A stretch of 64,000 nucleotides of DNA, from positions 2,074 to 66,073 of the forward strand of contig JBCCXL010000025.1 of assembly GCA_039191605.1 (NCBI GenBank), read 5' to 3'. The notes beneath the pieces were generated by a model that saw only the letters and a program-made list of their open reading frames with translations, was not told where the DNA came from and ran no database searches. The position numbers were made by a program, and so were the translations under genes. Numbering within the stretch: the stretch's first letter is position 1; each line of letters begins with the position of its first letter. Source of the DNA: Acidobacteriota bacterium. Lineage in GTDB: Bacteria > Acidobacteriota > Thermoanaerobaculia > Multivoradales > JAHZIX01. This document shows, in pieces, positions 3,459 to 28,185 of the stretch.

Positions 3459-3465
3459 CGACGTC

Positions 3466-4563: not shown

Positions 4564-4688
4564 GGGCCGAAAGGGCCGAGACCCAAGCCCGCTCTGGCCC
4601 TAAACTCTCTGAATAGACTTCTGCACTCTTGCCGAAATTTCCCGAATTCTCCCTCTTTCCCCTGGTTGAGACCCCGAAAGGAGCCGTC

Positions 4689-5903: not shown

Positions 5904-6152
5904 CGCCTCTTGAACTAGAAGCGAAGCGTCCTCAACAGGCAGCCACCCCTGGCTAGGTCCGTGAAGTAGGCCCCTTCACCTGTCCGAGCCAGAGCCCGCC
6001 GAGCGCCCCCTGGGCGCGTCGGATAGGGGAGGGGTGCGTCTACAGGATGCCTCGGCGCCTCATTTCTGAAGTGCCCTTGGCTGTCGCCAGCATCGCCAAC
6101 CCCAATCTCGAACCTCACCCAACCTTCCTCACCATCCAATGGAGTACCGGCC

Positions 6153-9157: not shown

Positions 9158-9172
9158 TACGCCCAATTTCTG

Positions 9173-9199
9173 AATCCCGACTTCCTAATCCCGACTTCC
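9173..9199. repeat. two copies of AATCCCGACTTCC at 14-nt period
   Basis: Read directly: aatcccgacttcc t aatcccgacttcc, in the spacer upstream of gene 9287. Confidence 0.85.
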
Positions 9200-9286
9200 G
9201 AACCTCAACTTTCCAAGTCTGACTTCAACCATCCAACTGATCCGGGCTCCTGAACACACATGGGCTCATCGAAAGGAGGCACAACC

Positions 9287-10126: not shown

Positions 10127-10148
10127 TTTTTCTGGAGAGCTCAGAACG

Positions 10149-12347
10149 ATGAAAACTTCATTGCGTTTCGCCCTGGTGCTGGCGGCGGTGGCCCTGATGG
10201 CTGCCGGCTCCGCCGCCGAGGCGCAGCAGAAGCTGCAGATCGGAGGCAACGTCTACACTAAGTTCCTGTGGGGAACCGAGCGGGTGGACGGCAGTCTCTA
10301 CAACTTCACCACCATTCCCTCCGAGGGTTATGGCGACACCGGGCAGGGTACGGAGATCGAGCTTCTGCTCTCCGCCAAGGTCTCGAAGTGGGTGGAGATC
10401 AGCGGTCGCCTCAAGGGCCGCTTCAACCAGAACTTCTGGACTAATTTCGGCGGCTTCGGCGGCGGCGGAGTGGGAGATCCCGGCTCCGGCGACTGCCTCG
10501 GCGGCGACTGCGGCGAATTCGATTCCCGCTCTGCTCAATACCTCAAGGTACGCGGCATGACGGTGCTGCTGACCCCCGGCTACAGCTGGGTGGACACCAT
10601 CACCATCGGCTCGTCGGATTTCGGGATGTTCAACCCCATGGTCCACGGCAAGATCCGCTTCATCGACCGCGACAACGGCTCCGGGATCATCTTCCAGGGT
10701 TCCAACGCCGACCGCTCGGTGACCTATGACTTCACCCGCTTCTCCCTGCCTCGCCTATGGGCCGGTCCTGAGTTCGATACCGGCGACTTCGCGGCTCTCG
10801 ACTCCGCCTACACCCTGCAGCTGGGTATCAGTCCGTCATCGAGCTACGACCTGACCCTCATCGGAACCTACGTCAACGATACCGAGATCGACGCTAGCGA
10901 TCTCAACCTCGACGACGGCCGGGACCTGCGGGCTCGTTTCCGCAATTCGGTCTATGGCGCGGTGCTCAACGTCTACGCCAGCAACTCGGTGGATCTCGGG
11001 CTGCAGTACTACCACTCCGAGTCCCAGACCTTCAGTGACTTCGCGCCGTCCAGCTTCTTCGGCCTCTCCGGCTTCTCGCCGGTGCCGGCGGGCAAGCTCT
11101 CCGACGACGCGCTGATCGGTGATGTCGGACTCAACGATCCCTTCGGCAACGGCCTGTCCTTCAACCTGCAGTACTTCGATATCGGTTCGGATTACGTCTC
11201 TATTCTCGCCGCCCGCCGCGAGCAGGACGTGCTCCTCACCGAGGGCTTCGATGGCGCCTTTGCCTTCCCTGGCCCCAGCAACGCCGCCTTCGGCGTGTTC
11301 GGCGGCAACCCCACCCGCATCGGCTACGGCGGATGGCAGGGCAACGCCCAGCAGGTGGCCACCATCAACGTCGACAACGAGTTCACCGATTTCGACGAGC
11401 AGCTGGCGGAGACGGTGATCGGCTGGAAGGGCTTCACCTTCAACCCGGTGTACGGCTCCGGCTCCCTGGATATCTCCGCGGAGTACACCTACATCGACTA
11501 CAACACCAACTGGCAGGCCTTCGACGATCCCACCCGTCCGGTGGATTCGAGCATCTACCCGGTGCACGAGCTGGATACCGGCGTCGGCCACAACTTCCGT
11601 AGCGCCTACGCTCCCTTCCAGGAGAAGGAAACCGAGATCCTCGCCCTCAACTTCAAGTACCTACTGGATGCCGGCAAGGGCGTGGACATCTTCGGCAAGG
11701 TGAAGTTCATCGACGAGACCGACAAGCGCCTCGACGACTCGAACTTTCTGCCCTTCGCCGCCGGCGACTGCCCCGGTGGCGGCGTCGCCTGCGCCAACAA
11801 CGCCAACGCCTACAACGCGGCGGGCAACAGCACCTCGGCGATCTACGGCAACCCGCCGGTGATCACCGTCAACGGCGTGACCGGCTACCAGTGGAAGCCC
11901 TTCGACTCGCTGGCCGACGACGACCGGGACATGGACTACAAGATGTACCAGCTCGGCGCCGGCTATCAGCTCACCAACGATCTCTACGCCTCGCTGCAAT
12001 TCGAGCGCTACGACGTGGACCTGCAGGACGGCAACACCGCCTTCCAGGCCTACCAGCTCCACGAGATCGCCTCCGGTGACCACACCAAGAACAAGCTGAT
12101 CCTGAAGGCTCGCTACGTTCTCGGCGGCGCGGAGATCGGCTTCAACTACGAGTACAACGAAGGCACCTTCGACCCTGACTTCGGTACCGGCTTCGTCGTC
12201 AACTTCGCCGACGAAGGCACCGCCGCCAGCGTCAACGTGCCGGTGGGCTCGCCGGGCTTCTTCGGTCGCTTCGGCGGCTGGAACAGCCTGGCGGAGCGCG
12301 ACTTCGATCAGCAGCGCTTCAAGGCCTACGTCAAGGTCCAGTTCTAA
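10149..12347 (+). CDS. outer-membrane beta-barrel protein (large porin-like), family not recognised
   Basis: Signal peptide MKTSLRFALVLAAVALMAAGSAAEA. Gly/Tyr/Asn/Asp-rich alternating pattern throughout. The C-terminus ...RFKAYVKVQF ends in Phe, as in BAM substrates. Confidence 0.7.
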   Translation: MKTSLRFALVLAAVALMAAGSAAEAQQKLQIGGNVYTKFLWGTERVDGSLYNFTTIPSEGYGDTGQGTEIELLLSAKVSKWVEISGRLKGRFNQNFWTNFGGFGGGGVGDPGSGDCLGGDCGEFDSRSAQYLKVRGMTVLLTPGYSWVDTITIGSSDFGMFNPMVHGKIRFIDRDNGSGIIFQGSNADRSVTYDFTRFSLPRLWAGPEFDTGDFAALDSAYTLQLGISPSSSYDLTLIGTYVNDTEIDASDLNLDDGRDLRARFRNSVYGAVLNVYASNSVDLGLQYYHSESQTFSDFAPSSFFGLSGFSPVPAGKLSDDALIGDVGLNDPFGNGLSFNLQYFDIGSDYVSILAARREQDVLLTEGFDGAFAFPGPSNAAFGVFGGNPTRIGYGGWQGNAQQVATINVDNEFTDFDEQLAETVIGWKGFTFNPVYGSGSLDISAEYTYIDYNTNWQAFDDPTRPVDSSIYPVHELDTGVGHNFRSAYAPFQEKETEILALNFKYLLDAGKGVDIFGKVKFIDETDKRLDDSNFLPFAAGDCPGGGVACANNANAYNAAGNSTSAIYGNPPVITVNGVTGYQWKPFDSLADDDRDMDYKMYQLGAGYQLTNDLYASLQFERYDVDLQDGNTAFQAYQLHEIASGDHTKNKLILKARYVLGGAEIGFNYEYNEGTFDPDFGTGFVVNFADEGTAASVNVPVGSPGFFGRFGGWNSLAERDFDQQRFKAYVKVQF

Positions 12348-12483
12348 GCGGACCAACTCATCGGCTCGGGCCTCGAGGGGGCCCGGGTCGGTGACCGTCG
12401 ACGGTGGAGATCCTGCCGTCGGCGCAACCCCGTCTCCCGCTCTGGCCCTGGGCCGGGCGGGGGCTTCCCCTCGGGATTTTTCT

Positions 12484-12520
12484 GGCCTGACTGTATCGGC
12501 CTGACTGTATCGGCCTGACT
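12484..12520. repeat. 14-nt tandem repeat GGCCTGACTGTATC, 2.6 copies
   Basis: Read directly: ggcctgactgtatc ggcctgactgtatc ggcctgact, ~65 nt upstream of ATG 12584. Confidence 0.9.
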
Positions 12521-12583
12521 TTGCGGGCCCTGCTCTACCGGCTGTGGGCCCATCGAAACCACGACGCTTTGGGAGAAACCGTC

Positions 12584-13720
12584 ATGACTCGTTCTTCTCG
12601 CCTCGCTAGCTTACGCCTCGATCGCTGGACTCTGGGAGTCGCGCGACCGAGCTTCGGTCTCGTCGCCCTCGTGCTGCTGATTCTCGGATCTTTCGCCCTC
12701 GCCACGCCGGCGGCGGCGGATCGCGACGATGTCTTCTTCAAGATCACCGATCCCCGGGGCGATGACCACGGCGACGGCAGCCTGACCTATCCCATCTCTC
12801 CGGAGTTCAACGAAGGGGAGCTGGATCTCATCGAGCTCACCGCCAAGGCCGCCAAGGGCGGCACGGAATTCCAGGCGATCTTCGCTGAGCCGATCCGCCG
12901 GCCCCGCCGGGTGGCGGTGGACGCCACCGGGGTAAGCCTCTCGGACGTCGCCCGCTTCGGCTTCTACACCTTCAACATCGACATCTACATCGACACCGAT
13001 CGCGAGCCGGGCTCCGGCGCGGTGCAGACCCTGCCGGGGCGCCGGGCGGAGCTGGATGCCGGCCACGCCTGGGAGAAGGTGGTGGCCCTGACCCCCCGCC
13101 CCCACGCCGCCCGCGGACAGCTGCAGCGGCTGATGATCAAGTCCCTGGAGCGCTCCATGGCGACCACCGGCGAGGCCTCTACCGAGGTAGAGATCTCCGA
13201 GGTCAAGACGGTGGTGCCGGACGAGGTCGGCCGCCACGTCTTCTTCCCCACCCGGGTGCGGGTTTCCGGCTCGAAGGTGCGCTTCTTCGTGCCGGATAGC
13301 TTCCTCGGTGGTCCGGCCCAGGACGATTGGAGCTACACCGTGGTGGTCTCCGGCTCCGACCTGCTGCCCTCCTTCGAGCTCGGCGCAGCCCTCGGCCTCG
13401 GCGAGGCTGGCGAGCCCAACCTGATGGTGCTGCAGCGGGAAGAGGGGCGCAACCAGCTGACCTTCGGCGGCGGTACCGACAACCACAACCTCGAGACCCC
13501 CATCGTCGACATCATCGCTCCCCCGGAGCAGCGCCAGGAGCGTATGCTGCGCTCCTACAACCCGCGCACCGGAGAGCCGGTTCGACTGTCCGGCGTAGTG
13601 CCGGCCCAGGGCGATGAGCGCCCGGCCCGCTACGCCGCGCCGACCGCTCCCCAACAGGCTCCGGAAGTCTCCTCGAAGTCCGAGCGCGAGGACGACGATG
13701 CCGTCGGAGAGGTGCGCTGA
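12584..13720 (+). CDS. secreted Glucodextran_C-like protein, paralog 2
   Basis: GGGAGA Shine-Dalgarno before ATG 12584; TM/signal segment. DPRGDDHGDGSLTYP...GELDLIELT...FYTFNIDIYIDTDREPGSG...LPGRRAEL...WEKVVALTP...FGGGTDN...PIVDIIA aligns with paralogs 1 and 3. Confidence 0.65.
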   Translation: MTRSSRLASLRLDRWTLGVARPSFGLVALVLLILGSFALATPAAADRDDVFFKITDPRGDDHGDGSLTYPISPEFNEGELDLIELTAKAAKGGTEFQAIFAEPIRRPRRVAVDATGVSLSDVARFGFYTFNIDIYIDTDREPGSGAVQTLPGRRAELDAGHAWEKVVALTPRPHAARGQLQRLMIKSLERSMATTGEASTEVEISEVKTVVPDEVGRHVFFPTRVRVSGSKVRFFVPDSFLGGPAQDDWSYTVVVSGSDLLPSFELGAALGLGEAGEPNLMVLQREEGRNQLTFGGGTDNHNLETPIVDIIAPPEQRQERMLRSYNPRTGEPVRLSGVVPAQGDERPARYAAPTAPQQAPEVSSKSEREDDDAVGEVR

Positions 13721-14130
13721 TCCTAGGGTCTGAAGGGTCCCAACAAGCCCCGAGGGCGTGAGATTCAGCGGATGCCGGGCTGAGCCGGCCTGATGCTGGA
13801 TTTCCTTCTCGTCCTCAGTCTCGACTCGGGAAAATTCTCGCTCTCCCAACGCGAGTGGGGTGGAAGGAGCGGCGCCATGGCGCGGCGCTCCTTCCACCCA
13901 TCGTTTCGATTCGTCGCCTCGGGACTGAGCCGCGGCATGTTCGTGGAGCACTTCGTCGGACGTGCCTCGTGGCAGGTCTCGCCGGATTTCTTGCCGAATG
14001 TGTCGCCGGAGTGGGCTGATAGCCTCACGGGGCGAACCTCGGGGGGGCGCCGGACGGACTCGCTGGCCGAGCTGGCTCTAGCAACTCGCTGGACGGGGAG
14101 ACGAGCATTTCGTGGAAAGGAGCGCGGCTC

Positions 14131-15267
14131 ATGAAGCGATTTGGAGTCGGTGGGGGAAGCCCGCGGAGAGGGCTGCTGGGAAACGAGAACGTTGGGTTGA
14201 GGCCGCTAGGCTGGTGGGCTCTCTTCGCCGCCCTGGCGCTGATTGCCGTCGCTACCCTTCCGGTGTTGACGCAGGGAGAGGAGAAAGAGGGGGATCGGAA
14301 GGGAGAGATCTTCGCCGTCGCCGATCCTTACGGAGATGACTTTGGCGCCGGGGAGCTGGTCTACCCGCTGCGGGAAGGGTGGGGGCGTGGAGATCTCGAC
14401 CTGCTGCGCTTCAGCGCGAGTCGGGTGGACGGCGGAACCCGCTTCGAGGCCCGGCTGGCGAGGTCGATTCGGGCGCCGATGCGCCGCGCCGTGGACTTCA
14501 CCGGGATCCAGGAGACGGATATCGCCCGTCTTCCCTTCTATACCTTCAATCTAGACGCCTATATCGACACCTCCGGCAGCGAAGGGGAGGAAGCCCTGGA
14601 AGGATGGGGCGGGGAGCGGGCGATGATGCCGGGAAGGCTGGCGGAGCTGCCGCCGGGGGCCGGCTGGGAAAAGGCCGTGATCCTCACTCCGGCGCCGGCT
14701 CAGGCCCGAGGGGAGCTGGTGCGCACCGTCGCGGCGGCGCTGGAGGACGATCCCGGAACCAGCTTCTCTCATTGGCTGCAGTCTCCGGGGCAATCTCCGG
14801 GGCAGGCGCCGAGCCCGCTGCCCACCGGGCGCCAGCTGCGTCGGGCGGTGGAAGAGGCGCTGAGCCAGCGGGTGCATTTCCCTCAGCAGGTGCACGTCCG
14901 CGGCCGGGAGATCACCTTCTTCGTGCCTGACTCCTTCCTCGGCGGCGCGGCGAGGGCGGAGTGGGGTTACGTGGTGGTGATCACCGGGGCCGAGCTGCAG
15001 CAGCGGGTGAAGATCCCGCTGCTGGCGCCCTACACCCGTCCCGAGAGCGCCGGCCTCGCCATGCCGGTAGTTTCCGGCCGGTCGAAGGACGCCTTCGGCG
15101 GCGGAGCGTGGGATCAACCCCTCCAGCCTTGGTTGATCGACATCCTGGAGGGACCCGGCGCCGATCAGGGAGCGATCTTGCGCAGCTTCGACCCCACCGC
15201 CGGCACCCTGGCGAGAGTGCCACCGGTGGTGCCCGCGATCCTGCCGGCTGCCGATCCCGAAGACTAG
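14131..15267 (+). CDS. secreted Glucodextran_C-like protein, paralog 3
   Basis: GGAAAGGAG Shine-Dalgarno before ATG 14131; signal/TM segment. DPYGDDFGAGELVYP...GDLDLLRFS...FYTFNLDAYIDTSGSEGEE...GRLAEL...WEKAVILTP...FGGGAWD...PWLIDIL. Closest to paralog 2. Confidence 0.65.
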   Translation: MKRFGVGGGSPRRGLLGNENVGLRPLGWWALFAALALIAVATLPVLTQGEEKEGDRKGEIFAVADPYGDDFGAGELVYPLREGWGRGDLDLLRFSASRVDGGTRFEARLARSIRAPMRRAVDFTGIQETDIARLPFYTFNLDAYIDTSGSEGEEALEGWGGERAMMPGRLAELPPGAGWEKAVILTPAPAQARGELVRTVAAALEDDPGTSFSHWLQSPGQSPGQAPSPLPTGRQLRRAVEEALSQRVHFPQQVHVRGREITFFVPDSFLGGAARAEWGYVVVITGAELQQRVKIPLLAPYTRPESAGLAMPVVSGRSKDAFGGGAWDQPLQPWLIDILEGPGADQGAILRSFDPTAGTLARVPPVVPAILPAADPED

Positions 15268-15285
15268 AGATCTTGGGGATGAGGA

Positions 15286-16218
15286 ATGGCCAAGGACTTC
15301 GATAGCGCCCGCCGCGCGGCGGTGATTCAGGATCTGCTCGGCGCTCTGCGGGACGAGCCGGTGGACCTGCTGCCCTTCGACGAGGTGAGGGAGAGCCTGC
15401 ACCTGCGGCACCTTGTAGACCGCGGCATCTATGAGGTGCCCCTGGACCAGGTGGTGGGCTCCTTCAACCGCACCCGGGAATTCAACCGCGCCTTCCTGCC
15501 TCGCCGCGCCGGCCAGCGGGAGCGATGGAAGCGAATCGAGGCCCTGGCGAAGGGCTCCGAGGGCTTTCCGCCGGTGGAGCTCTACAAGGTGAGAGACGCC
15601 TACTTCGTCATTGACGGGCACCACCGGATCTCCGTGCTCCGCGCCCTCGAGGCGCCGACGGTGGAAGCCTGGGTGAAGGAATTCCTGACCCCCGTGCCCC
15701 TGTCCCCGGAGGAATCCATCGAAGAGGTGGTGAGCAAGGCCGGCCTCGCCGACTTCCTCGAGGCCACCGGCCTCGACGCCAGCGCCGAAGCCAGCTACCG
15801 GACCACCGCCGCCGGCGGCTACGAGCGCCTGCTGGAGCACATCGTGGTCCACCGCCATTACCTCGGTGTCGAGCAGCAGCGGGAAATCCCGTGGCGCGAG
15901 GCGGTGAGCTCCTGGCGAGATCGCGTCTACCAGCCGGTGATCGAAGTGGTGCGGCAGCGGCGAGTATTGGAACAATTTCCCCAGCGCACCGAGACCGATC
16001 TCTACCTCTTCACCATGGACCACTGGCACCTGCTGCGAGAGCGCTACGGCGACGAGCAAGTCGACGCCCAGCGCGCCGTCCACCACCTCTCCCGCAAACG
16101 CCGTCGCCGCCAGCGCCAGGAAATGCCCTGGGTGCGCCGCAAGCTCCACGACCTCTGGCGTCAGTGGCGGGGGAGTAGCATCAGAGAATCTGAAGCCCAA
16201 CAAGAGTCAAAGAAGTAA
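15286..16218 (+). CDS. ParB/Srx-fold N-terminal domain protein with uncharacterised C-terminal domain
   Basis: YFVIDGHHRISVLRAL is the DGHHR-type ParB-like nuclease-domain signature. The C-terminal half (ERLLEHIVVHRHYLGVEQQREIPW...) resembles a DUF I cannot name with certainty. Basic tail. Confidence 0.6.
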   Translation: MAKDFDSARRAAVIQDLLGALRDEPVDLLPFDEVRESLHLRHLVDRGIYEVPLDQVVGSFNRTREFNRAFLPRRAGQRERWKRIEALAKGSEGFPPVELYKVRDAYFVIDGHHRISVLRALEAPTVEAWVKEFLTPVPLSPEESIEEVVSKAGLADFLEATGLDASAEASYRTTAAGGYERLLEHIVVHRHYLGVEQQREIPWREAVSSWRDRVYQPVIEVVRQRRVLEQFPQRTETDLYLFTMDHWHLLRERYGDEQVDAQRAVHHLSRKRRRRQRQEMPWVRRKLHDLWRQWRGSSIRESEAQQESKK

Positions 16219-16482
16219 GTATGTCGGTGATTGATCGCTACTCACGAGTCTCGCTTTGATGGCGAAGCGGTTTAAGGTCCACCTAGATTCTTGTGATTTA
16301 TTATTGCGGCTTTGAGGGTCTAGCCATATAGATGGTGGCTGTCCATTCTCCGGCTTGAATCCGTTCTGCCGGGGCCTGACGGTTATGATGAGTGAAGGGT
16401 CGGCTTTTTGTATTGTGGATCTTGCAGCAGCTATGTTTTTATTTGAGGAGTGACTAGAATCTTATTGATTAGGGGGATTTAG

Positions 16483-18600
16483 ATGATGGGATCAGGGTTA
16501 CCCAAGATAGGAGTCGTTGGTTTAGGCGCTTATTATTCGAAGCTGGCTCCGTGGCTGGTGGGTAAATTTGATCAAGTAGCTTTGATAGATGCCCGGGCAG
16601 AAGTGCAAGAAACTCTGGCGGGTTCTATGCGGGGAAGGTTTACATGGGCAATGGATCCGGAGTGTATTGCCGAGAGATTGTCTAGAGCGAACCCGGATGG
16701 AGTGTTGCTTCTCATTCCCCCGGAGTCTTTCCAGGCGATCGCATTACCAATAGTTCAGCGAGGCCTGCGAGTCCTGCTGGAGAAGCCTTTTTGCCGTGAC
16801 GGGTTGGACCTCGAGAGGATTCTGGAAGAGCTGCGCTCCCCTGACCAAATTCTCTTTTCAGACTACTACCGAGATGTTCGATCTTTGCCGCTCATGTCCC
16901 TTTGCCAAGGCAATACTCTGACTTCATTGGAACGCTCCTTCGTGAAGAAGGCCAGCGCAGAAAGTCTTGAGCCGGGGGGCGATCTCACAGCGGTTACCAA
17001 AATCATCGGTCGGCTCAACGAGAGAGCTCCCTTCATCAATGGGGAGTGGCGCTCAGAGGCCGAGGGGGGTGGCGTGGTTCGCGACCTGATGGTTCACTTA
17101 CTCGCGGTGATCCAGCGCCTCTTTCCTGACCGATGGTTGAGGCCCAGGGAGGTCGTGTTGACTCAGCCAAGTCATGCCAGAGCGGAATCGCGTGCCAGGG
17201 TCATCGGGCACCTAGTGCCTGGTGGTCTGCAGATTGACCTAGAAGTTCAAAAAGGTGCGGTGAAGAGCCAAAGACATTTGACATTGCTCGGACCGGACTT
17301 TTCGCTGCGGCAATCCTTCGATGATCGCCACGAGGCGTATCTGGAGAGAAAAGGGAAGCGATTGATGCTAGCGGAGCTCGCCGGCAACCATTATGAGTTG
17401 AGTGCAGCCTTGTGGCGGTGCTGGTTGGACAATTCAGCCATTTCCGTAGGCCCTAGGGATTGTCGCGAGATCGTCTCAATCCTAGATTTGATTCGGCTCT
17501 CAGGCGAGCGGCTTGTGACAAGAAGGACGCCGGCTAGCGGGGAGGTGCTAGTGCGAGTTATCGATAAGCCTCATGAGAGAGAACAGCGAACAGTATTTCC
17601 CGTGACCAGTGTATGCACGATTCCTGCTACTGCAGATCATGATGAGAACAAGTCCCCGGATTGGCTTCTGGAGAGCGAATCCCGCGTGCTCGACAGTCTG
17701 AACACCAGAGCCGATGAGATGCTGGATTCTCTCGGCCCTCAGGAGGCTCGAATGGAGGTTCTGAGGCGTCACTTCTTCTACGAAGATTGGGATCGGAAAA
17801 TTGTTCCCCGTACGATTGTTCCGCCAGTGGCGTCCTACGTCGAGAAAGTCGGTAGTCGCGGAAAGAACTATGGTCACTTGACGTTCCCCCATGAGGCTGC
17901 CGGAATGGCAGCATTCAAGGCGATCGCCGGAAATCAATCGGACAAGATTCTTGTAGGGGAGTCTTATAAGGAGCTTGCAGATCAGAGAACGCGTTTTGTT
18001 TGCTTTGGTAGCTCGGTGGTCAACGAGCTCACTCGAATGGTTTTCCCCCTCGGCCTAGAGGGGAAGAGTGAGCTTCGGAGTCTCTTTGCGTTAGAGAAAA
18101 TTCCCTACAGAATCGTTTTGGATCGGCAGGACCCTGATGTCAAGGTGTACTCGGCGATGTTGGGTGGCGAGCGGCTGAAGAGGAGGAAAGCCATTATCGA
18201 GTCAATGCCCGGTGGTGTTTATAGAAAGCACTCATTGCCCCCTCAGGAGTATTTGTGGTCCGCTGGCCGATGGCAGGGGTGGCTGAGGCGAGATCGCCTA
18301 CTCGTCAGCAAGTTGCCGATCAACTTTGAAGGGGGCTCCTTGCTGTTGATCGAGGGAGGGCACGGAAGTGGGACCGAGGCGTTTCGGCTCCTTCTGAGCG
18401 AGAAGGCCTTCGATCCTCTCGCTTTGTCGGAGCTGAACCGGCTCCTCATCGGTTGGCGGTACTTCCAAATTGTCTTCGAGGTCGAGGACATCCGGCATGA
18501 GAAGGCTGGTAGCTCTCCACGCCATCTGAGGGTTTCATCGGATCTTCCGCCTCGGCAAGTACACCTATCGAAAGAGCTCTTGCCTTTTTGGAATAGTTAG
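16483..18600 (+). CDS. 705-aa fusion protein: N-terminal Gfo/Idh/MocA-type NAD(P)-binding Rossmann domain plus unknown C-terminal domain (possibly SLOG/LOG-like Rossmannoid)
   Basis: GGGGGA Shine-Dalgarno 7 nt before the ATG. The N-terminus KIGVVGLGAYYSKLAPWL...VALIDAR...PDGVLLLIPPESFQAIALPIVQRGLRVLLEKPF is the classic GFO_IDH_MocA pattern. The C-terminal ~340 aa has a strand/Gly-loop pattern (FVCFGSSVVNEL ... LLLIEGGHGSGTEAFRLLL). No family was recognised. Confidence 0.75.
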   Translation: MMGSGLPKIGVVGLGAYYSKLAPWLVGKFDQVALIDARAEVQETLAGSMRGRFTWAMDPECIAERLSRANPDGVLLLIPPESFQAIALPIVQRGLRVLLEKPFCRDGLDLERILEELRSPDQILFSDYYRDVRSLPLMSLCQGNTLTSLERSFVKKASAESLEPGGDLTAVTKIIGRLNERAPFINGEWRSEAEGGGVVRDLMVHLLAVIQRLFPDRWLRPREVVLTQPSHARAESRARVIGHLVPGGLQIDLEVQKGAVKSQRHLTLLGPDFSLRQSFDDRHEAYLERKGKRLMLAELAGNHYELSAALWRCWLDNSAISVGPRDCREIVSILDLIRLSGERLVTRRTPASGEVLVRVIDKPHEREQRTVFPVTSVCTIPATADHDENKSPDWLLESESRVLDSLNTRADEMLDSLGPQEARMEVLRRHFFYEDWDRKIVPRTIVPPVASYVEKVGSRGKNYGHLTFPHEAAGMAAFKAIAGNQSDKILVGESYKELADQRTRFVCFGSSVVNELTRMVFPLGLEGKSELRSLFALEKIPYRIVLDRQDPDVKVYSAMLGGERLKRRKAIIESMPGGVYRKHSLPPQEYLWSAGRWQGWLRRDRLLVSKLPINFEGGSLLLIEGGHGSGTEAFRLLLSEKAFDPLALSELNRLLIGWRYFQIVFEVEDIRHEKAGSSPRHLRVSSDLPPRQVHLSKELLPFWNS

Positions 18601-18748
18601 GAGGATTCGCGGGTAACTGCATAGGCGTTCAGCTCGCTGGTCCTTGGAGAAAGGCTCAGTGCATTCGTTGACTGCGGAAAGTCCATCAGGATTCAGCAAA
18701 GCTGCTTGGACCTCGAGAGTCTCGAACAGGTGACGGAGGTTCCAGATA

Positions 18749-18799
18749 GATGGAAGGGCTAGCCAGATGGAAGTGCCAGCCAGACGGAAGGGCCAGCCA
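18749..18799. repeat. 17-nt tandem repeat, 3 copies
   Basis: gatggaagggctagcca gatggaagtgccagcca gacggaagggccagcca, between the two convergent island genes. Confidence 0.9.
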
Positions 18800-18871
18800 A
18801 ATGACCGGGCGCCGGGCGCTAGGGAAGTGCCCCAAGCCCTCTTGGGAGAGGCGATCCAGTCATGCAGCGAG

Positions 18872-19285
18872 TCATTGCTCTACCTGCCGCTTGATCCTCG
18901 CCAAGTCGATCCGTGCTGCTTCGAGCCTCGATTCGAGGCGCTCTAGCTCGGCCGTCAGAGGCCCGCTTCTGATCTTGAGGTAGACCCAGGCGACGAGGGT
19001 CATGGCGGCAAAGAAGGTGAAAACGGCGAGCAGAAATAGAGGCCAAGGCCACGGACCTTCCGCGCTTGCGACTCCGAACAGGCTCTCGTACCAAGGTACC
19101 GCCATTCGAGTGACGAAGACCGAGAATCCCACCTGGATCACCAGGATGGGGAGCACCTTCGTAAGGAACTCATCAAAGCTGTTCACCGACAGGGATTGGA
19201 TCTCTTCGATCTCTTTTTTCAGCTTCGTGCGCCTGGCATCCAGGCGCGCCACGTTTTCTCTTTTTTCTACCAGAATGTCCTTCAT
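18872..19285 (-). CDS. small membrane protein: coiled-coil, 2 TM helices, coiled-coil
   Basis: GAGGAGAG Shine-Dalgarno before ATG 19285. Charged N-terminal heptad-like stretch MKDILVEKRENVARLDARRTKLKKEIEEIQ. Hydrophobic segments VLPILVIQVGFSVFVT and WPLFLLAVFTFFAAMTLVAWVYL. C-terminal ELERLESRLEAARIDLARIKRQVEQ. Confidence 0.6.
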   Translation of the reverse strand: MKDILVEKRENVARLDARRTKLKKEIEEIQSLSVNSFDEFLTKVLPILVIQVGFSVFVTRMAVPWYESLFGVASAEGPWPWPLFLLAVFTFFAAMTLVAWVYLKIRSGPLTAELERLESRLEAARIDLARIKRQVEQ

Positions 19286-19581
19286 GCTGCACTCTCCTCG
19301 AATGAACGACGGGCCTTCCGCTAGAAGGGCTTTCAACTAGGCAGCCCCATGTCGCAATGCTGCCGGGGCCCCACTGGTTTTCTAGCATTCTGACGTTCTA
19401 GCATTTTGGTCGACTGACTCGCGGCTCTATCGGCCTGCTGATTTGTCTGCTCTGTGGTGATGATTCTCTCCCACGGCTTTCACCGACTCTTGCTTCTTGC
19501 CTGCATGCTTTTTACGTTCTGGTGTCGGGAGCGGGCTTGGGGAAAGGCTTTGAGCATCTTGCGATACGGAGTCTTTGGAGT

Positions 19582-20556
19582 TTAGCTGCGATAGAGATCT
19601 CCGATCTTCGGCCTCAGGCTGCTGGGAGGAACTCCCATTTCGCGGCCGAAGGCGCGGCTGAAGGCGGCGGCAGATTCGTAGCCGACCGACTGGGCCACTT
19701 CGCTGACGGAGGAGCCCTGGCGGAGCTGTCGTGCCGCCAGTCGTAGTCGCCAGGAGCTTAGATACTTCATGGGAGATTGGCCGACGGCGGCCTTGAATCG
19801 GGAGGCGAAGGGAGAGCGAGAGAGACCGAGCTGATTCGCCAGCTCCGGCACGGTCCAGGGGTGTTGGGGGTTGGCGTGGAGCAGGGAGAGGGCGCGGCCG
19901 GCGACCGGGTCCTGGAGCGCCGCCAGCCAGCTGGCGGCCTCTCCCTGGTGCTCTTGAAGCCAGCGCCGCAGGGCGCCGACCAAAATCAGGTCGACGAAGC
20001 GTGCTCTCGCTAGGGAGCTTCCCGGCAGATCTTGCGCCGTTTCTGCCGCGAGCAGCTTCATGATGGTGCTCAGCCAGCGCTCGGGGGCGCCCTCGGATCC
20101 CCGCAGGATCAGGAGCGGCGGAAGCGCTTCGATGAGCGCCTCGCTGCCTATGGAGTCGATGACGAATCGACCGCAGGTTAGCTCGGTAGAGGAGGGCAGC
20201 CCGGAAGATTTCTGGGGTTGGGCTGGCTCATCGCTTAAATCGAGGCAGCGCTGATCAGCGTCGTAGCGCTCGGGCAAGACTTCGGTCAATGACCTGCGGT
20301 GTCGTGGGGCGGGATCGGAGGAGATCGTATGTCCGCTGCCGCTCACCAGCAGGATCAAGTCCCCTGCGCGAGTTTCCTCGGCTTGATTCTCAGCCGGCAG
20401 GCTGATCCAACAGGAGCCGCGCTCCACGACGTGGAAGTGAGCCTGGCCAGGCGGTAGGGAGAGGGAGGTGTCGTGGCCCAGGAGCGTGCAGCAGAAGATC
20501 TCTCCGCGAAGCTGTAGATGTCCGAGGACCTCGGACAAGACATCCTCAGCGGCCAT
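19582..20556 (-). CDS. AraC family transcriptional regulator with N-terminal cupin-type domain
   Basis: C-terminal double HTH (LANQLGLSRSPFASRFKAAVGQSPMKYL...VAQSVGYESAAAFSRAFGREMG). N-terminal cupin-like sensor region. Confidence 0.9.
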   Translation of the reverse strand: MAAEDVLSEVLGHLQLRGEIFCCTLLGHDTSLSLPPGQAHFHVVERGSCWISLPAENQAEETRAGDLILLVSGSGHTISSDPAPRHRRSLTEVLPERYDADQRCLDLSDEPAQPQKSSGLPSSTELTCGRFVIDSIGSEALIEALPPLLILRGSEGAPERWLSTIMKLLAAETAQDLPGSSLARARFVDLILVGALRRWLQEHQGEAASWLAALQDPVAGRALSLLHANPQHPWTVPELANQLGLSRSPFASRFKAAVGQSPMKYLSSWRLRLAARQLRQGSSVSEVAQSVGYESAAAFSRAFGREMGVPPSSLRPKIGDLYRS

Positions 20557-20729
20557 TCTCTTGAACCTCTAGAAGGAGCATTGTAGGCGCTTCTGCAAAG
20601 AAATCAGTCTTCTTGATCATAGATCCTCTCATCTACCCGGAATATAACAGGAGCTCACGATCCGGTGAGTTTCCTGGCGCCCCCCGAGGCCCTGGGCTCG
20701 TCGGCCAGGATCCCTACGGAGGAATGACC

Positions 20730-21812
20730 ATGTTGAGAGTTTCGAGGATGCAGAAGGAATTGATTCCTCTGGTGGCTGTTGTCTCGCTGGCTGTTGGCCT
20801 GCAGGCTGCAGGCTGCGGCCAGGCTGAGGAGCGAGGACTGCCCGAGGAGCCTGAGCAGCGGGCCGTCGCGGGCAGCGGGAATCAGAATCCCGATATCCAG
20901 GGCGCGGAAGCCGCCAACCCCCTGGCGGCGGGGATCGCTATCGAGCGCCCTCCCCACGCCGCCGCGGAGGTCGCTCATAGGGAGGCGACGGTGCTGGCGG
21001 AATGGCCGGTGGGCACCTTCGTGGAGAACCTAGTGGCGCTGGCGGACGGCTCTTTCTTGGTGAGTGTGGTGACCGCGAAGCGTATCGATAGGGTCAGCGC
21101 CGATGGATCGAGGGCTGTCTTTGCCCAATTCGAGCACGAGCCGACGGGCCTCTCGAGGGTCGGTGACGAGGTGATCGTGAATCTCGGGGCCCCGGGGCAG
21201 CCGGGCTGGGCTCTGTGGGGCCTCTCGTTGGCCGATGGAGAGAGACGGTCCATCGCCGAGATCCCGGAGGCTCTCTTTCTCAATGGCTCCACGCCCTTCG
21301 GCGATCGCTCCGTCTTGGTGACGGATTCGATCCTCGGCCAGGTATTCCAGGTCGATCTCCTCGACGGAAGCTACCGGGTCTGGTGGCGTGACGAGCGTCT
21401 CGGCAAGATCTCGGAGGACCGCTGGATGCCCGGAGCCAACGGCATCGCCGCGACGGAGAACGAGGTCTTCGTCGCGAGCACGGAGAGGGCCTTGCTGCTC
21501 AGGGTAGAGATCCAGCCGAACGGCAGCGCCGGGGCCGCCGGCGTGCTGGGGGAGCAGCTCGTCGGAGATGATCTGGTCCTCGCCGCCGACGGCACGATCT
21601 ACCTCACCACCAACGTCTACAACCAGGTCCTCGCGGTGAGCGAGGACGGCAGCCGCCGAGAGCTGGCGGGCGTCGATCAATTCATGAACGGCGCGACGGC
21701 GGCGGCTCTAGCTCCTGACGGCCATCTGGTGGTCACCACCACCGGCGGCATCCTAGCGCCGGTGGACGGAGTGGTGCAGCCGGCGAAGCTCGTTCGCCTG
21801 AAGATCAGCTGA
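20730..21812 (+). CDS. beta-propeller lipoprotein (SMP-30/gluconolactonase/strictosidine-synthase-like)
   Basis: GGAGG Shine-Dalgarno 9 nt before ATG 20730. Signal plus lipobox-like LQAAGC. Repeating blade-like segments (ADGSFLVS, SVLVTDS, PGANGIAATENEVFVAST, DGTIYLTT, DGHLVVTT). Divergent from the AraC gene. Confidence 0.6.
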   Translation: MLRVSRMQKELIPLVAVVSLAVGLQAAGCGQAEERGLPEEPEQRAVAGSGNQNPDIQGAEAANPLAAGIAIERPPHAAAEVAHREATVLAEWPVGTFVENLVALADGSFLVSVVTAKRIDRVSADGSRAVFAQFEHEPTGLSRVGDEVIVNLGAPGQPGWALWGLSLADGERRSIAEIPEALFLNGSTPFGDRSVLVTDSILGQVFQVDLLDGSYRVWWRDERLGKISEDRWMPGANGIAATENEVFVASTERALLLRVEIQPNGSAGAAGVLGEQLVGDDLVLAADGTIYLTTNVYNQVLAVSEDGSRRELAGVDQFMNGATAAALAPDGHLVVTTTGGILAPVDGVVQPAKLVRLKIS

Positions 21813-21866
21813 GCGCTGAGGCCCCTTCTCGGCGAGAGCCGAGGAGGAGGTTGCCTGCTCTGGGCC

Positions 21867-23258
21867 TCAGCTGTCTTCCAGGATCTCGTCCTTCTGCGGA
21901 TCCCACACCGTCACCGGGCCGAGGCTGGAGAGCTGTTCCTTCAGGGCGTCGGCGGGGCCGACGGCGAGGATGGTGGCCTGGGCGGGGTGGAGATGGCGCT
22001 GGGCGAGATCCAGGAGGCCCTCGGGGGTGACGCTGCGGAAGGATTCGAGGTATTGGTCGAAATAGTCGTCCGGCAGATCGTAGAGGGGCAGCAGGGTGAG
22101 TCGCGCGGCGAGGTCGTCGAAGGTTTGGAGCTGGGTGGCGAAGATGCCGGTGAGGTAGTTGGCGGTGTCTTCCAGCTCCTCGAGATCCACCGCCTCGCGG
22201 CGCAGGATCTCCATTTCCTTGAGGATCTCTTCCGTAGCGCGGCCGGCGACCTCGGTGGCGACGGCGGTCTGTACCTTGAAGGGGCCGGCGCCCCGGCGGC
22301 CGATGAAGCGGCTGTGGGCGCCGTAGGTGAAGCCGTGGACCTCGCGCAGATTGAGGTTGATGCGGCTGATGAACTTCCCGCCGAGCAGGGCGTTGAGCAC
22401 CATCAGCGAGCCGTATTCCGGATCGGTGCGGGGGACGCCGACGTGTCCCACCCGAAGCTCCGTCTGAGCCGCCGCCGGGCGGTGAACGATCCACACCCGG
22501 CGCTCTCCCGGCGCTGACTCAGGATAGGTGGGATGGAGCGGAGCGGGGCCGAGATCGAGGCGACCGAAGGATGAGTCCAGCAGCGGCAGCAGCTGGTCTT
22601 CGGACACCGCGCCGGCGGCCACCAGGAAGGCTCCCTGGCAGCGGTAGTGGCGCTGGTAGAAGTTGCGGATGGCCGTCTCGTCGATCTTCTCCAGGCTCGC
22701 CTCGTTGCCGTGGAGGGAGCTGCCGTAGAGAGCGTCGCCGTAGAGGGCGCGATCGAGGTAGAGGTTGGCGAGGGCCTGGGAGTCGTCCCGCCGTTGCAGC
22801 AGGCTGGCCTGCCGCCGCTCCGCCAGTCGGCGGATCTCTCGGGTGGGAAAGGCGGGTTCCAGCACCACCTCCGACAGCAGCTCGACGGTGGCTTCGAGGT
22901 GGGTCGAGAGGCCGAAGGTGCTGACGTACGCAGCATTCCAGCCAGCATCGGTGGTCAGGCTGCCGCCCAAGGCCTCAGCGGCGTGGGCGATGGCCCGCGA
23001 ATCTCGCCGGGTAGAACCTTCATCCAGCAGGCTGGCGGTAAACGTAGCGATGCCGTCGAGACCCTCGGGATCGTGCTCGCCGCCGGCGGGGGCGAAGAGC
23101 TCCAGTCGAGCGAGGGGGAGGGTGGGATCCGGGGCCAGCACCACCGGTAGACCGTTATTGAGCCGGTGCCGGGAGAAGGAGGGGAAGACGAAGTCGCGGG
23201 CGGGCCGCAGCGCCGGTGGCGAGTTGCGGTCCAGGGAAGGAGAGAGGATGTCGCTCAT
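21867..23258 (-). CDS. M16 (pitrilysin) family peptidase, non-catalytic-type subunit
   Basis: M16 fold pattern, but the HxxEH position reads ATFTASLLDEGS. ATGA overlap with the upstream M16 gene. Confidence 0.85.
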   Translation of the reverse strand: MSDILSPSLDRNSPPALRPARDFVFPSFSRHRLNNGLPVVLAPDPTLPLARLELFAPAGGEHDPEGLDGIATFTASLLDEGSTRRDSRAIAHAAEALGGSLTTDAGWNAAYVSTFGLSTHLEATVELLSEVVLEPAFPTREIRRLAERRQASLLQRRDDSQALANLYLDRALYGDALYGSSLHGNEASLEKIDETAIRNFYQRHYRCQGAFLVAAGAVSEDQLLPLLDSSFGRLDLGPAPLHPTYPESAPGERRVWIVHRPAAAQTELRVGHVGVPRTDPEYGSLMVLNALLGGKFISRINLNLREVHGFTYGAHSRFIGRRGAGPFKVQTAVATEVAGRATEEILKEMEILRREAVDLEELEDTANYLTGIFATQLQTFDDLAARLTLLPLYDLPDDYFDQYLESFRSVTPEGLLDLAQRHLHPAQATILAVGPADALKEQLSSLGPVTVWDPQKDEILEDS

Positions 23259-24631
23259 CGTGCTGCTCCCTCGTCGGCTACCGCTTCGGCGTTCGACTTG
23301 CTGCGGGGAAGATAGGTGACGCTCACTCGCTGATGGCGCTGGAGGAATTGCCGGGCGAAGCCGGCGAGGTCCTGCGACTCCAGCTCCAGGTAGCGGCGAT
23401 GCTCCTCCATAGCGCGCTCCGGGGCGTCGAAATAGGTCGTCATCTCGCTCAGGCGATCGGCGCGATCCTCGATGGTCTGGAGCCCCTGATAGTGCGAGAC
23501 CAGCGTTCGATTGCGGGCTCGCTCCAGGTGTTCCGGCGCTAGCTTGCCGGCGGCGGCCCGGTCGAGCTCCGCCAACAGCTCCTCCTCGAGCTCCTTCGGG
23601 TCGACGCCGGGACGGCAGGTGGCGATGACGTAGAAGGTGGTCGCAATCTCCAGCGGCAGAATGTACGCGGCCACATCCTGTGCCAGCTGGCGCTCGTACA
23701 CCAGGCGCTGATAGAGGGGAGAAGACTTGCCGCTGCCGAGGGCGGTGGCCAGCAGGTCGCCGGCATACCAGGAACGATCCCCGTAGGCCGGAGCCCGGAA
23801 GCCGAGATAGACCCGCGAGAGCTGGACGTCGTCCTCCACCTGGATGGTGCGCGGCGACTCCATCGGCAGAGTGTCGGCGACCACCGGTGGGGGAGTGGGG
23901 CCGGAGGCGAGGGGGCCGAAGAAGCGCTCCACCTGCTCCAGGGCGCGATCCGGATCGAAGTCACCGCATAGGGTGAGCACCGCGTTATTCGGCAGGTAGT
24001 AGGTGCTGAAGAAGGCCTGGACGTCCTCCAGGGTGGCGGCGGCGATGTCCTCCATGGTGCCGATCACCGGCCAGCTATAGGGGTGTCCCGGGGGCCAGAG
24101 CAATTCTTGGAGACGCTCGAAGGCCCGTCCGTAGGGTCGGTTGTCGGTGCGCTGGCGACGCTCGTTCATCACCACGCTGCGCTGGTTCTCGAGCTTCTCT
24201 GAGTCGATTCCCGGCAGCAGAAAGCCCATGCGATCCGACTCCAGCCACAGGGCGAGGTCGAGAGCGCCGGCGGGAAGGGTCTCGTAATAGTTGGTGCGGT
24301 CGAACCAGGTCGATCCGTTGACCACGCCGCCGACCTTCTGCACGTGTTGGAAGTGCTGATTGTCGGGCACGTGTTCCGAGCCCTGGAAGAGCATGTGCTC
24401 AAAGAGATGGGCGAAGCCGGTTCGTCCCGGTCGCTCGTTCTTCGAGCCGACGTGGTACCAGAGGTTGACGGCGACCAGGGGAAGGGTGTGATCTGGCTGC
24501 AGATTGACTCGGAGGCCGTTGTCCAGCTGGTGGCGGCGCAGATCCAGATCGGTGATGGAGGCTAGGTCAGGGGTAGTGGAGGGGCACATGCTCGGGGTGG
24601 GGAAAGGGAGTCGAAGGGCTCGGTTGGCCAA
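23255..24631 (-). CDS. M16 family zinc metallopeptidase (catalytic HxxEH subunit)
   Basis: GFAHLFEHMLFQGSEH carries the inverted zinc motif HxxEH. The start may be the internal Met MCPSTT. Confidence 0.85.
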   Translation of the reverse strand: MANRALRLPFPTPSMCPSTTPDLASITDLDLRRHQLDNGLRVNLQPDHTLPLVAVNLWYHVGSKNERPGRTGFAHLFEHMLFQGSEHVPDNQHFQHVQKVGGVVNGSTWFDRTNYYETLPAGALDLALWLESDRMGFLLPGIDSEKLENQRSVVMNERRQRTDNRPYGRAFERLQELLWPPGHPYSWPVIGTMEDIAAATLEDVQAFFSTYYLPNNAVLTLCGDFDPDRALEQVERFFGPLASGPTPPPVVADTLPMESPRTIQVEDDVQLSRVYLGFRAPAYGDRSWYAGDLLATALGSGKSSPLYQRLVYERQLAQDVAAYILPLEIATTFYVIATCRPGVDPKELEEELLAELDRAAAGKLAPEHLERARNRTLVSHYQGLQTIEDRADRLSEMTTYFDAPERAMEEHRRYLELESQDLAGFARQFLQRHQRVSVTYLPRSKSNAEAVADEGAAR

Positions 24632-25002
24632 GAAGGTCCAGCTTCGATGCCGTCACGACTCGCTGTGGAGGAGTTTCGGCAGGAGAGAACCGCGCGGATA
24701 CCGCGGGATGGAGCGTCTGCAGGGAGAAGACGACAGGACGATTCTCTGAGGGCTGATGGAGAATGGAAGCCGGTACGGACGAATCCTCGAAGGAGAGGCA
24801 AGAGAAGAGATGAGGGAGGCAGCGGAAGTGAGCGCATGCCTACCGTGAGGGGATTCAGGCAGTCTACGGAGGCATAGAAAGGGTGTCAACCGGAGGTGGG
24901 GCGACTCCCAGGGGCTCCGTCGAAGGCAGTCGCCGGCCCTGCTGGGATGACTTCAAAAAGCCGTTGGGGGCTGCAGATTGGCGGGAGTGCGGCAGAAATC
25001 CC

Positions 25003-25031
25003 TTGACTTACGCCGTGTTGCCGCCTACGAT
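25003..25031 (+). promoter_or_regulatory. candidate sigma-70 promoter of lexA (TTGACT-17 nt-TACGAT)
   Basis: TTGACT 25003-25008, a 17-nt spacer, then TACGAT 25026-25031. The ATG at 25039 begins 8 nt after the -10 hexamer and has no Shine-Dalgarno. Confidence 0.5.
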
Positions 25032-25038
25032 AATCGCC

Positions 25039-27846: not shown

Positions 27847-28185
27847 GGGGCTCGCGGGGTAGCAGCATTGCGCCCGAAGACTGGGTTGGGCTCTTCCGAC
27901 GGGCTCTGCTGAAGGGGCCCGCTGAACGAGCCTCGCTGGCCGTTCGATTGAAGGCCGTCTGATCCAAGACCGGTTCGGTCCAAGGATGCCGATGGGGGAA
28001 GCGTCGAGCTATTCAGGCCCCCTCGCTCTTTTGCCTCTTTGGTGAGCCTCTTTGGCTGAGGAGCCCTTCTGCCTCCCGCGCCGAGGAGAGGGCGATTCTC
28101 GCTACCGAGAGGATGCTTCCGGGAAGAGATTTGTTGTAGCGCCTCAACAGGGTTAAACTCCCGCTTGAGGTAATGGGCTACAACT

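Follow-up and report, generated by a model that had tools for sequence, protein, structure and literature searches.

A GC-poor islet in an Acidobacteriota genome carries a dehydrogenase fused to a previously undescribed domain

Why does a segment with a guanine-plus-cytosine (GC) content far below that of its surroundings lie between two native genes of an Acidobacteriota bacterium, and what might the genes that it carries do? The segment is located near positions 16219-19581 of a 64,000-nucleotide (nt) stretch of contig JBCCXL010000025.1, and we refer to this whole stretch as the window. An earlier reading of the letters alone (the original prediction) described a low-GC island that lies between housekeeping-type genes, holds only two convergent genes of no named function and a 17-nt tandem repeat, and is of the kind in which phage-defence and toxin systems are typically found. 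Our analysis supports well the view that the segment is compositionally foreign, horizontally acquired DNA. The larger of its two open reading frames (ORFs), which we call ORF A, encodes a Gfo/Idh/MocA dehydrogenase domain joined by a linker to an alpha/beta domain of a previously undescribed family. The smaller, ORF B, encodes an orphan membrane protein. Coordinates of all features are collected in Table 1.

Composition and borders of the segment

By direct counts, positions 16219-19581 have a GC content of 54.5%, compared with 65.4% for the rest of the window. In a GC profile, this is the minimum among all 3.36-kb windows of the 64 kb and lies about 4 standard deviations (SD) under the mean. 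A maximum-likelihood fit of two change points over positions 12000-24000 set the borders at 16174 and 19609, with GC fractions of 0.676, 0.542 and 0.664 to the left, inside and to the right, and a log-likelihood gain of 85 nats. The island is therefore real, and the fitted borders fall within 45 nt and 28 nt of those originally proposed, although its GC content is about 54% rather than the "about 50%" that had been estimated. Milder dips, to 58-60% in 1-kb windows, occur at about 26750-28250, 38000-39250 and 54750-55750, and none comes near the 54% of the islet.

Codon usage is foreign, as had been claimed, and is 3-4 SD off that of the host genes. An index modeled on the codon adaptation index (CAI) is 0.371 for ORF A and 0.48 for ORF B, compared with 0.685 +/- 0.074 for 31 host genes (minimum, 0.541), and GC content at third codon positions is 0.60 in ORF A, compared with 0.73-0.92 for genes nearby. 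ORF calls and Tandem Repeats Finder (TRF) recovered the two convergent genes and the tandem repeat (3.3 copies) that had been described. The spacers had been called AT-rich, which holds for the first, upstream of ORF A, but not for the other two, with 59% and 55% GC.

The nearest genome in the GTDB species set (L001), an Acidobacteriota metagenome-assembled genome with about 60% amino acid identity, has no such segment after its ParB-like gene, which we count in favor of a foreign origin. The gene order g9260-g10149-g12521-ParB-like is kept in this relative, at 50-67% identity. There, a different, GC-rich gene begins 10 nt past the ParB-like stop, and the contig then ends. Among genome contigs, the best match to the ParB-like flank has 56-59% identity and lies on a contig that stops 200 nt past the gene. 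Similarity to the ParB-like orthologue in L001 stops at ...LWRQ(W/Q)R, just ahead of the last 15 codons of the gene in our window. GC-poor DNA encodes the corresponding terminal residues, GSSIRESEAQQESKK, for which that orthologue has no equivalent. Because these codons are GC-poor and lie past the end of the homology, the left junction is probably inside the 3' end of the ParB-fold gene, whose original 3' end the insertion seems to have replaced.

Of the features by which genomic islands are recognized, atypical composition is present, and an integrase or transposase and a tRNA or tmRNA target are not. A tRNA scan found no tRNA anywhere in the window, and a domain search found no recombinase (integrase or transposase) domain in the only two ORFs of the segment, both in agreement with what had been reported. 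A flanking direct repeat had also been said to be lacking; this needs qualification, because a weak, imperfect 21-nt direct repeat lies inside the two borders. Its copies agree at 17 of 21 positions, which was equalled in 8 of 1,000 shuffles, and because the window length was picked post hoc, after the repeat had been seen, we treat it as marginal. An Rfam scan of positions 15500-20500 returned nothing credible, and promoter and terminator scans gave background levels.

An independent Logan contig covers positions 13000-22500 with a single mismatch to the window. Both junctions are thus present in two assemblies and cannot stem from one assembler alone. The contig comes from the single public run, of a marine metagenome, that contains the DNA of the segment.

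A two-domain protein and its scattered relatives

ORF A begins 5 nt downstream of a Shine-Dalgarno-like AGGGGGA at 16471-16477. Its gene call in Logan has 704 amino acids (aa). The NCBI call of 552 aa starts at an internal GTG (V154) and is too short, because it drops the Rossmann NAD-binding subdomain.

The N-terminal domain matches PF01408 over residues 8-126 with 30.2 bits (gathering cut-off, 24); the fused relatives P0002-P0007 also match this model. It contains a Rossmann GLGAYY loop (residues 13-18), D36, an LEKPF motif with the EKP lysine K101, and the GGxxxDxxxH motif in the form GGGVVRDLMVHLL (D201 and H205). K101, D201 and H205 are kept in all 11 relatives checked, whether fused or consisting of this domain only. 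In the AlphaFold2 (AF2) model, the predicted local distance difference test (pLDDT) score is mostly >90 for residues 1-343, and Foldseek gave 348 PDB matches at E <= 1e-3 (best E, 1.9e-15). The closest folds are those of the UDP-GlcNAc 3-dehydrogenase GnnA (TM-score 0.81) and the TDP-sugar 3-ketoreductase KijD10 (TM-score 0.79), and further matches include DgpA, glucose-fructose oxidoreductase and inositol dehydrogenases. By its motifs and predicted structure, the domain is a Gfo/Idh/MocA dehydrogenase domain of the sugar or nucleotide-sugar 3-dehydrogenase structural type, with intact catalytic motifs and presumably an active enzyme.

With known members of this superfamily (GnnA, PDB 7bvj; KijD10, PDB 3rc1; and the sugar C3-oxidoreductases DgpA and levoglucosan dehydrogenase), ORF A shares the two-domain fold, the Rossmann loop, the EKP lysine and the GGxxxDxxxH motif. 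Unlike them, it has only 13-18% identity to solved structures in this domain, no characterized member carries its C-terminal domain of about 310 aa, and its subfamily is limited to rare metagenomic sequences. The N-terminal half is a new subfamily of the Gfo/Idh/MocA superfamily. A match to well-characterized metabolic families had been named as an outcome that would speak against the original prediction. Half of the protein comes close to this outcome: the N-terminal half belongs to Gfo/Idh/MocA, though to no characterized subfamily, whereas the C-terminal half matches nothing.

The disordered linker contains an RR dipeptide (TRRTPASG), but the hydrophobic segment present here in most fused relatives is missing from it. 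The full-length AF2 model has a predicted TM-score (pTM) of just 0.57, so the two halves appear to have no fixed mutual orientation. Modeled alone with 56 sequences, the C-terminal domain (C-domain) reaches a pLDDT of 88.6 and a pTM of 0.89.

Conserved motifs of the C-domain family are (Y)PHD, GSPxSN, PYHF, DFLLVSRLP, GGHGAGTxAFELL and YFQxVxEV, and the motifs assigned to this part of ORF A are (Y)PH(D/E), GS(P)xSN, PY(HF), D(F)LLVS(R)LP, GGHGxGTxAxxLL and YFQxVxEV. Residues G509, S557, D604, P612, G625, H627, G628, L636, Q662 and E666 of ORF A are invariant in the family alignment, A1. The two Gly-rich loops lead from strand to helix: GSxxSN follows strand 504-508, and GGHGxGT lies between strand 619-625 and helix 628-638. 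Such Gly-rich strand-to-helix loops are the usual phosphate- or nucleotide-binding geometry in three-layer alpha/beta folds.

Among the Pfam, PDB and BFVD libraries, the C-domain is a family not described before. Pfam showed no family in the 56 C-domain members at E <= 1, apart from domains fused in single members. The C-domain profile found nothing relevant among all PDB sequences, and the best Foldseek matches were at E 0.011 with a TM-score of 0.29 in the PDB (BcsB and GATase1-like domains) and at E 0.12 in BFVD. The GGHGxGTxAxE loop is reminiscent of the PGGxGTxxE loop of LOG/SLOG domains, which we take as a lead only. A SLOG/LOG-like identity, raised by this GGxGxGT..E loop, was dropped after the Pfam, PDB-sequence and Foldseek searches, which gave no SLOG assignment; LOG, DprA and TIR are absent from the top 50 Foldseek PDB matches of the domain.

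An exhaustive HMMER scan showed how very rare the family is: among 1.84 billion cluster representatives, it yielded 91 relatives, consisting of about 7 full-length fusions (611-695 aa, about 30-35% identity), about 25 proteins with the N-terminal domain only and about 55 with the C-domain only (300-350 aa). Their clusters hold 1-2 sequences, the recorded sources are metagenomes, and the sole name given is "hypothetical protein". Searches based on a word index are nearly blind to the family: ORF A retrieved only itself, the A1 profile two proteins, and the relative P0011 six, so that the relatives came to light in the exhaustive scan only. A 974-aa hit with 15 repeat stretches (P0054) appears to be spurious and repetitive, and it was excluded from the alignments. 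A narrower alignment, A2, was used for the locus search and gave 12 metagenome loci and no viral ones. IMG/VR, the INPHARED phages and the PLSDB plasmids contained no relative of ORF A, of a typical C-domain protein or of ORF B.

L016, L018, L023-26 and L028/29 encode the dehydrogenase-like (GFO-like) domain and the C-domain as a fusion or as neighbors, and the gene order is reversed in L021. Because the two are fused or adjacent in either order, we see a Rosetta-stone pattern that points to a functional link. The C-domain is also fused to a PNP_UDP_1 nucleosidase (P0024 and P0069), to Trans_reg_C, an OmpR-type winged helix (P0075), to an XRE helix-turn-helix (HTH) domain (P0077), and to a Cys/His-rich N-terminal segment (P0016, P0021 and P0023), and it stands alone in other proteins. 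The last three fusions start with a conserved C-x-RFE ... H-x3-C-x4-H pattern, followed by RR and a hydrophobic segment; this start has no Pfam match and recalls anti-sigma zinc fingers. In many members, RR and a moderately hydrophobic segment come right before the C-domain, resembling a Tat signal if N-terminal and a transmembrane (TM) segment if internal. This feature is absent from ORF A, P0075 and P0069.

In 12 of 14 loci, the family gene has a lower GC content than the remainder of its contig (mean difference, -4.3 points), so that a GC deficit against the host characterizes the family and is not confined to our window. In two divergent loci, an HAD_2 phosphatase is encoded directly downstream of the C-domain gene, and the two HAD proteins are 38% identical (E 1e-45).

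Several neighborhoods contain genes that point to conflict or mobility. In L028/29, the genes directly upstream of the fusion, on the same strand, encode a defence-type HerA ATPase (PADLOC HerA, E 1.5e-21) and a 198-aa protein. The three genes of this block (L028 5853-10744, equivalent in L029) encode HerA (723 aa), the 198-aa protein, which has no family, and the GFO-C-domain fusion (690 aa). Their GC content is 0.57-0.59, compared with 0.62-0.72 for most flanking genes, and we consider the block a candidate multi-gene system around the ORF A family. In L035 (2876-11762), a PNP_UDP_1-C-domain fusion and an HAD gene are convergent with a complete system of GAP1-N1, two DO-GTPases, GASH and Metallophos, and this region also adjoins two HNH_2 genes. 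Systems of the GAP1-N1/DO-GTPase type are reported to recruit PNPase and TIR effectors and SLATT proteins with two TM helices (Kaur et al. 2020, PMC7159879). The L035 fusion may be a variable effector of its neighboring system. The PNP part of P0024 matches the PADLOC "PN-superfamily" effector (E 4e-7). L034 has integrase fragments and Barstar as neighbors, L018 has a protein upstream that weakly resembles TIR or nucleoside deoxyribosyltransferases (NDTs; E 5.8e-5), and L021 has a ParB_N-DNA methylase.

Other neighborhoods are ordinary. L030 contains GH36 and a surface protein; L033 contains VanZ, a PPTase and MbtH; and L017 contains a peptidase, a kinase and an acyl-CoA ligase. The nearest relatives with the N-terminal domain only adjoin GH127 and GH3 glycosidases, and no C-domain is nearby.

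ORF B, repeats and flanking genes

ORF B is preceded by a Shine-Dalgarno sequence, GAGGAGAG, at 19292-19299 on the minus strand. Its layout comprises a charged N-terminal helix, two TM helices (residues 42-58 and 83-99) and a C-terminal coiled coil. No family in Pfam, PADLOC or PHROGs includes this singleton protein; its best Pfam E-values, 0.014-0.08, are to unrelated coiled-coil or TM families. ORF B resembles SLATT and PycTM effectors and class II holins in its small size, two TM helices and charged helical termini, but it has no sequence match to any of them. Its assignment as SLATT, PycTM or holin was dropped, because no SLATT_1-5 or PycTM match appeared even at E <= 10 and only the topology of two TM helices agrees.

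A conserved, convergent, small membrane gene beside family members was not found; L025 has an unrelated ORF with one TM helix at such a place, and L033 has VanZ. It had been suggested that homologous gene pairs be sought in known defence islands. Relatives of ORF A do lie near HerA and GAP1/DO-GTPase genes, but a homologue of ORF B was found at none of the family loci examined.

The 17-nt tandem repeat sits in the 271-nt gap between the convergent stops of ORF A and ORF B, and its unit has no other occurrence in the window. This spacer gives no RNA-structure signal, because it folds no better than shuffled sequences (z = -0.09). The two 13-nt direct repeats, which precede ORF B by 95-125 nt and follow the AraC-family gene, might be an operator, a promoter element or a binding site for a regulator. 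The AraC/Cupin_6 gene lies upstream of ORF B and has the same orientation.

The flanks had been called housekeeping-type, a description that does not fit them. To the left is a cluster for alpha-glucan utilization and ABC transport, followed by the ParB-fold gene, and to the right are the AraC/Cupin_6 regulator, an uncharacterized secreted protein, two M16 peptidases and LexA. The native alpha-glucan cluster (1581-15267) encodes an alpha-amylase-family enzyme, a MalK-type ATPase, a solute-binding protein, two permeases, one of which has 707 aa and a long N-terminal extension, and three paralogous Glucodextran_C/SLH-like proteins. It also encodes a 732-aa protein that has no Pfam family and is 67% identical to its L001 counterpart.

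Two ORFs farther right have long N-terminal parts with no family assignment. A LexA-like repressor (24883-25857; LexA_DNA_bind and Peptidase_S24 domains) has 324 aa, with an N-terminal extension of about 120 residues that has no family match; this ORF may be over-extended, as the first start was used. A 696-aa ORF at 33695-35785 on the minus strand has GreA/GreB domains confined to its last ~145 residues, with no assignment for the ~550 residues that precede them; either the ORF is over-long or it encodes an unusual Gre-factor fusion.

Table 1. Features in and around the GC-poor segment (positions in the window)
Feature	Position	Strand	Basis or remark
Native ParB-fold gene	15286-16218	+	Left flank
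Last 15 codons and stop of ParB-fold gene	16171..16218	+	GC-poor; L001 alignment by eye
GC-poor foreign segment	16174..19609	.	Two-change-point fit; 54% GC vs 66-68% in both flanks
Upstream spacer of ORF A	16219..16482	+	AT-rich; 46% GC
Imperfect 21-nt direct repeat, left copy	16308..16328	+	Just inside left border
ORF A, two-domain protein, 705 aa	16483..18600	+	ORF list, gene calls, AF2
Gfo/Idh/MocA NAD-dependent oxidoreductase domain, residues 1-343	16483..17511	+	Pfam, motifs, AF2, Foldseek
Disordered linker, residues 344-392	17512..17658	+	pLDDT <50
Undescribed alpha/beta domain, residues 393-705, ~310 aa	17659..18597	+	Family alignment, AF2
17-nt tandem repeat, 3.3 copies, 84% matches	18748..18803	+	TRF; unit AGATGGAAGGGCCAGCC
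ORF B, 137 aa, ATG at 19285	18872..19285	-	Gene callers record the exact product
Two 13-nt direct repeats, TTCTAGCATTCTG / TTCTAGCATTTTG	19380..19408	.	16 nt from start to start
Imperfect 21-nt direct repeat, right copy	19546..19566	+	16 nt ahead of the stop of the AraC-family gene
Native AraC/Cupin_6 gene	19582-20556	-	Right flank; native composition

Candidate roles of the islet

The explanation that we favor, to which we would give slightly less than an even chance of being correct, is that the islet was acquired horizontally and that ORF A is a ligand-coupled accessory enzyme. The islet lies between the 3' ends of the native ParB-fold and AraC-family genes, at the edge of the alpha-glucan cluster, and its main cargo is ORF A, a two-module protein of a very rare, mobile family. 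A flexible linker of about 50 residues would tether the dehydrogenase to the C-domain of about 310 residues. Because the C-domain is a constant element found on interchangeable enzymes and on two kinds of DNA-binding domain, we infer that it is a small-ligand-binding (sensor or regulatory) module. Because its partners (GFO 3-dehydrogenase type, PNPase, HAD and TIR/NDT-like) act on sugars, nucleosides or phosphates, we propose that the ligand is probably a phosphorylated sugar or nucleoside-type molecule.

The C-domain would then gate, or pass substrate to, the attached output module. In ORF A, the output would be the NAD(P)+-dependent oxidation of a sugar hydroxyl; among the relatives, it would be cleavage of an N-glycosidic bond (PNP_UDP_1, with the HAD phosphatase) or DNA binding (HTH). 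The resulting role would be an accessory, strain-specific conversion of sugar or nucleoside derivatives, and ORF B would be an unrelated or loosely associated orphan membrane protein with two TM helices on the same islet.

Several observations weigh against this explanation. No family member has a known ligand, substrate or activity, and the islet offers little basis for metabolism, since it supplies no transporter or pathway partners for its single dehydrogenase. The RR and hydrophobic segment suggests that some relatives are extracytoplasmic, which would be awkward for allosteric coupling to a cytoplasmic enzyme. Several relatives also reside in neighborhoods of defence type (L028/29, L034 and L035), and the invariant S557, D604, H627, Q662 and E666 could equally make a catalytic site, so that the C-domain would be an enzyme and not a sensor. 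Finally, the islet has neither an integrase nor a tRNA, and only a marginal direct repeat, to account for its acquisition.

The islet can also be compared with known systems. In conflict systems, the standard architecture joins a sensor domain to variable enzymatic or HTH outputs. Reportedly, Burroughs et al. described in 2015 sensors fused to PNPase, TIR or HTH outputs in nucleotide-centered conflict systems. The ORF A family resembles the sensor-effector fusions of such systems (SLOG, SAVED and CARF; Kaur et al. 2020, PMC7159879) in joining a constant domain to swappable PNP_UDP_1, dehydrogenase and HTH partners, and in being GC-poor, patchy and in some cases next to HerA or GAP1/DO-GTPase genes. 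It differs in that no model or structure of SLOG, SAVED, CARF or TIR matches its C-domain, the islet has no signal-generating enzyme, and the literature searched contains no earlier case of a Gfo/Idh/MocA effector. Like other small genomic islets, the segment combines a sharp drop in GC content and codon adaptation with borders at gene ends and uncharacterized cargo; it differs in having no integrase, transposase or tRNA target, and only the marginal 21-nt repeat. A type II toxin-antitoxin (TA) pair was rejected, because the genes are convergent and 271 nt apart, encode proteins of 705 and 137 aa and have no TA domain. The convergent orientation itself argues against an operon or a TA pair.

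The main competing possibility, which we regard as appreciable but rather doubtful, is a novel anti-phage or conflict module made of one protein or of two genes. Its C-domain would sense an infection-derived or nucleotide-type signal and activate the dehydrogenase (or, in relatives, a PNPase-type nucleosidase), with ORF B as a membrane effector of two TM helices, comparable to SLATT or PycTM proteins. The compact, foreign, GC-poor islet, the general GC deficit of the family and its extreme rarity and patchiness, in clusters of 1-2 sequences, are consistent with this possibility. So are HerA in the same low-GC block at L028/29, the L035 fusion and HAD that abut the GAP1-N1/DO-GTPase system and the HNH_2 genes, the PN-superfamily match of P0024, and the neighbors in L034, L018 and L021. 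Set against these observations, PADLOC recognized no known defence system in ORF A or ORF B: PADLOC-DB v2 gave no family for either at E <= 0.1, and none for the fused homologue of L028 or the stand-alone C-domain protein of L022. The single match among four proteins checked was BrxA (E 0.0096), on the native ParB-like flank, and none was meaningful. Overall, ORF A, ORF B and four relatives lack PADLOC matches, the islet genes have no PHROG matches, and phage and plasmid copies were not found in the collections searched. Moreover, the phage-defence literature searched holds no Gfo/Idh/MocA effector, and ORF B has no SLATT or PycTM match, is convergent with ORF A and never lies beside the family elsewhere. 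Other loci have ordinary neighbors (GH36, accessory genes of nonribosomal peptide synthesis and peptidases), relatives with the N-terminal domain only occur in glycan-utilization contexts, and the flanks in our window, with a glycan cluster, ParB-like and AraC genes and M16 peptidases, are not those of a defence island. A defence role is plausible, with indirect support from the neighborhoods of distant relatives only, and the phage-defence part of the original prediction retains the compact, foreign islet and the defence or mobile genes beside some relatives, but not a recognized system or a TA pair. The more specific proposal of a new single-polypeptide immune protein, in which the GGHGxGT sensor fold activates a dehydrogenase that depletes or alters a nucleotide or cofactor pool, with a partner of two TM helices, is improbable in our judgment.

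Another explanation makes the C-domain itself an enzyme, with its active site among the invariant polar Ser, Asp, His and Glu residues. ORF A would then be bifunctional and catalyze two consecutive sugar or nucleoside steps, and the HTH fusions would be regulators derived from an enzyme. The invariant S557, D604, H627, Q662 and E666, the Rosetta-stone pattern and the work of PNP_UDP_1 and HAD partners on the same class of compounds fit this idea, as do the best, non-significant Foldseek neighbors, which are flavodoxin/GATase1-like domains of carbohydrate-active proteins. However, the C-domain resembles no enzyme family in either sequence or fold, its fusion to two kinds of DNA-binding domain would be less usual for an enzyme than for a ligand-binding module, and the long disordered linker offers no channeling interface, so we consider a bifunctional enzyme unlikely. 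It is very improbable that nothing was acquired, whether because the low GC content is ancestral (a relaxed or AT-biased region) or because the metagenome bin contains a chimeric mis-assembly. The lack of an integrase, a tRNA and a clear target duplication would suit such an origin, presence/absence polymorphism is not observable in the single public run that holds the sequence, and contig-level depth is uninformative. Yet the steps in composition are sharp on both sides and lie at gene ends, both ORFs are intact with ribosome-binding sites, and two assemblies agree across both junctions. In addition, relatives of ORF A share the GC deficit in unrelated hosts, and L001 lacks the segment after its ParB-like gene.

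The islet itself is an ordinary, small, horizontally acquired patch, and the novelty is in its cargo. The C-domain has been combined, as if from Lego bricks, with a sugar dehydrogenase, nucleosidases, phosphatase neighbors and DNA-binding domains, and promiscuous domains have repeatedly proved to be sensors of small signaling molecules or metabolites. If ORF A serves plain accessory metabolism, then the family will be one more, modest entry among the domains of unknown function. If it is an immune protein, then it would introduce a new sensor domain and an oxidoreductase effector unprecedented in bacterial immunity. The ligand of the C-domain, once identified, would give a function to all members at once, and would also show whether a Gfo/Idh/MocA enzyme can be a regulated output, possibly in defence.

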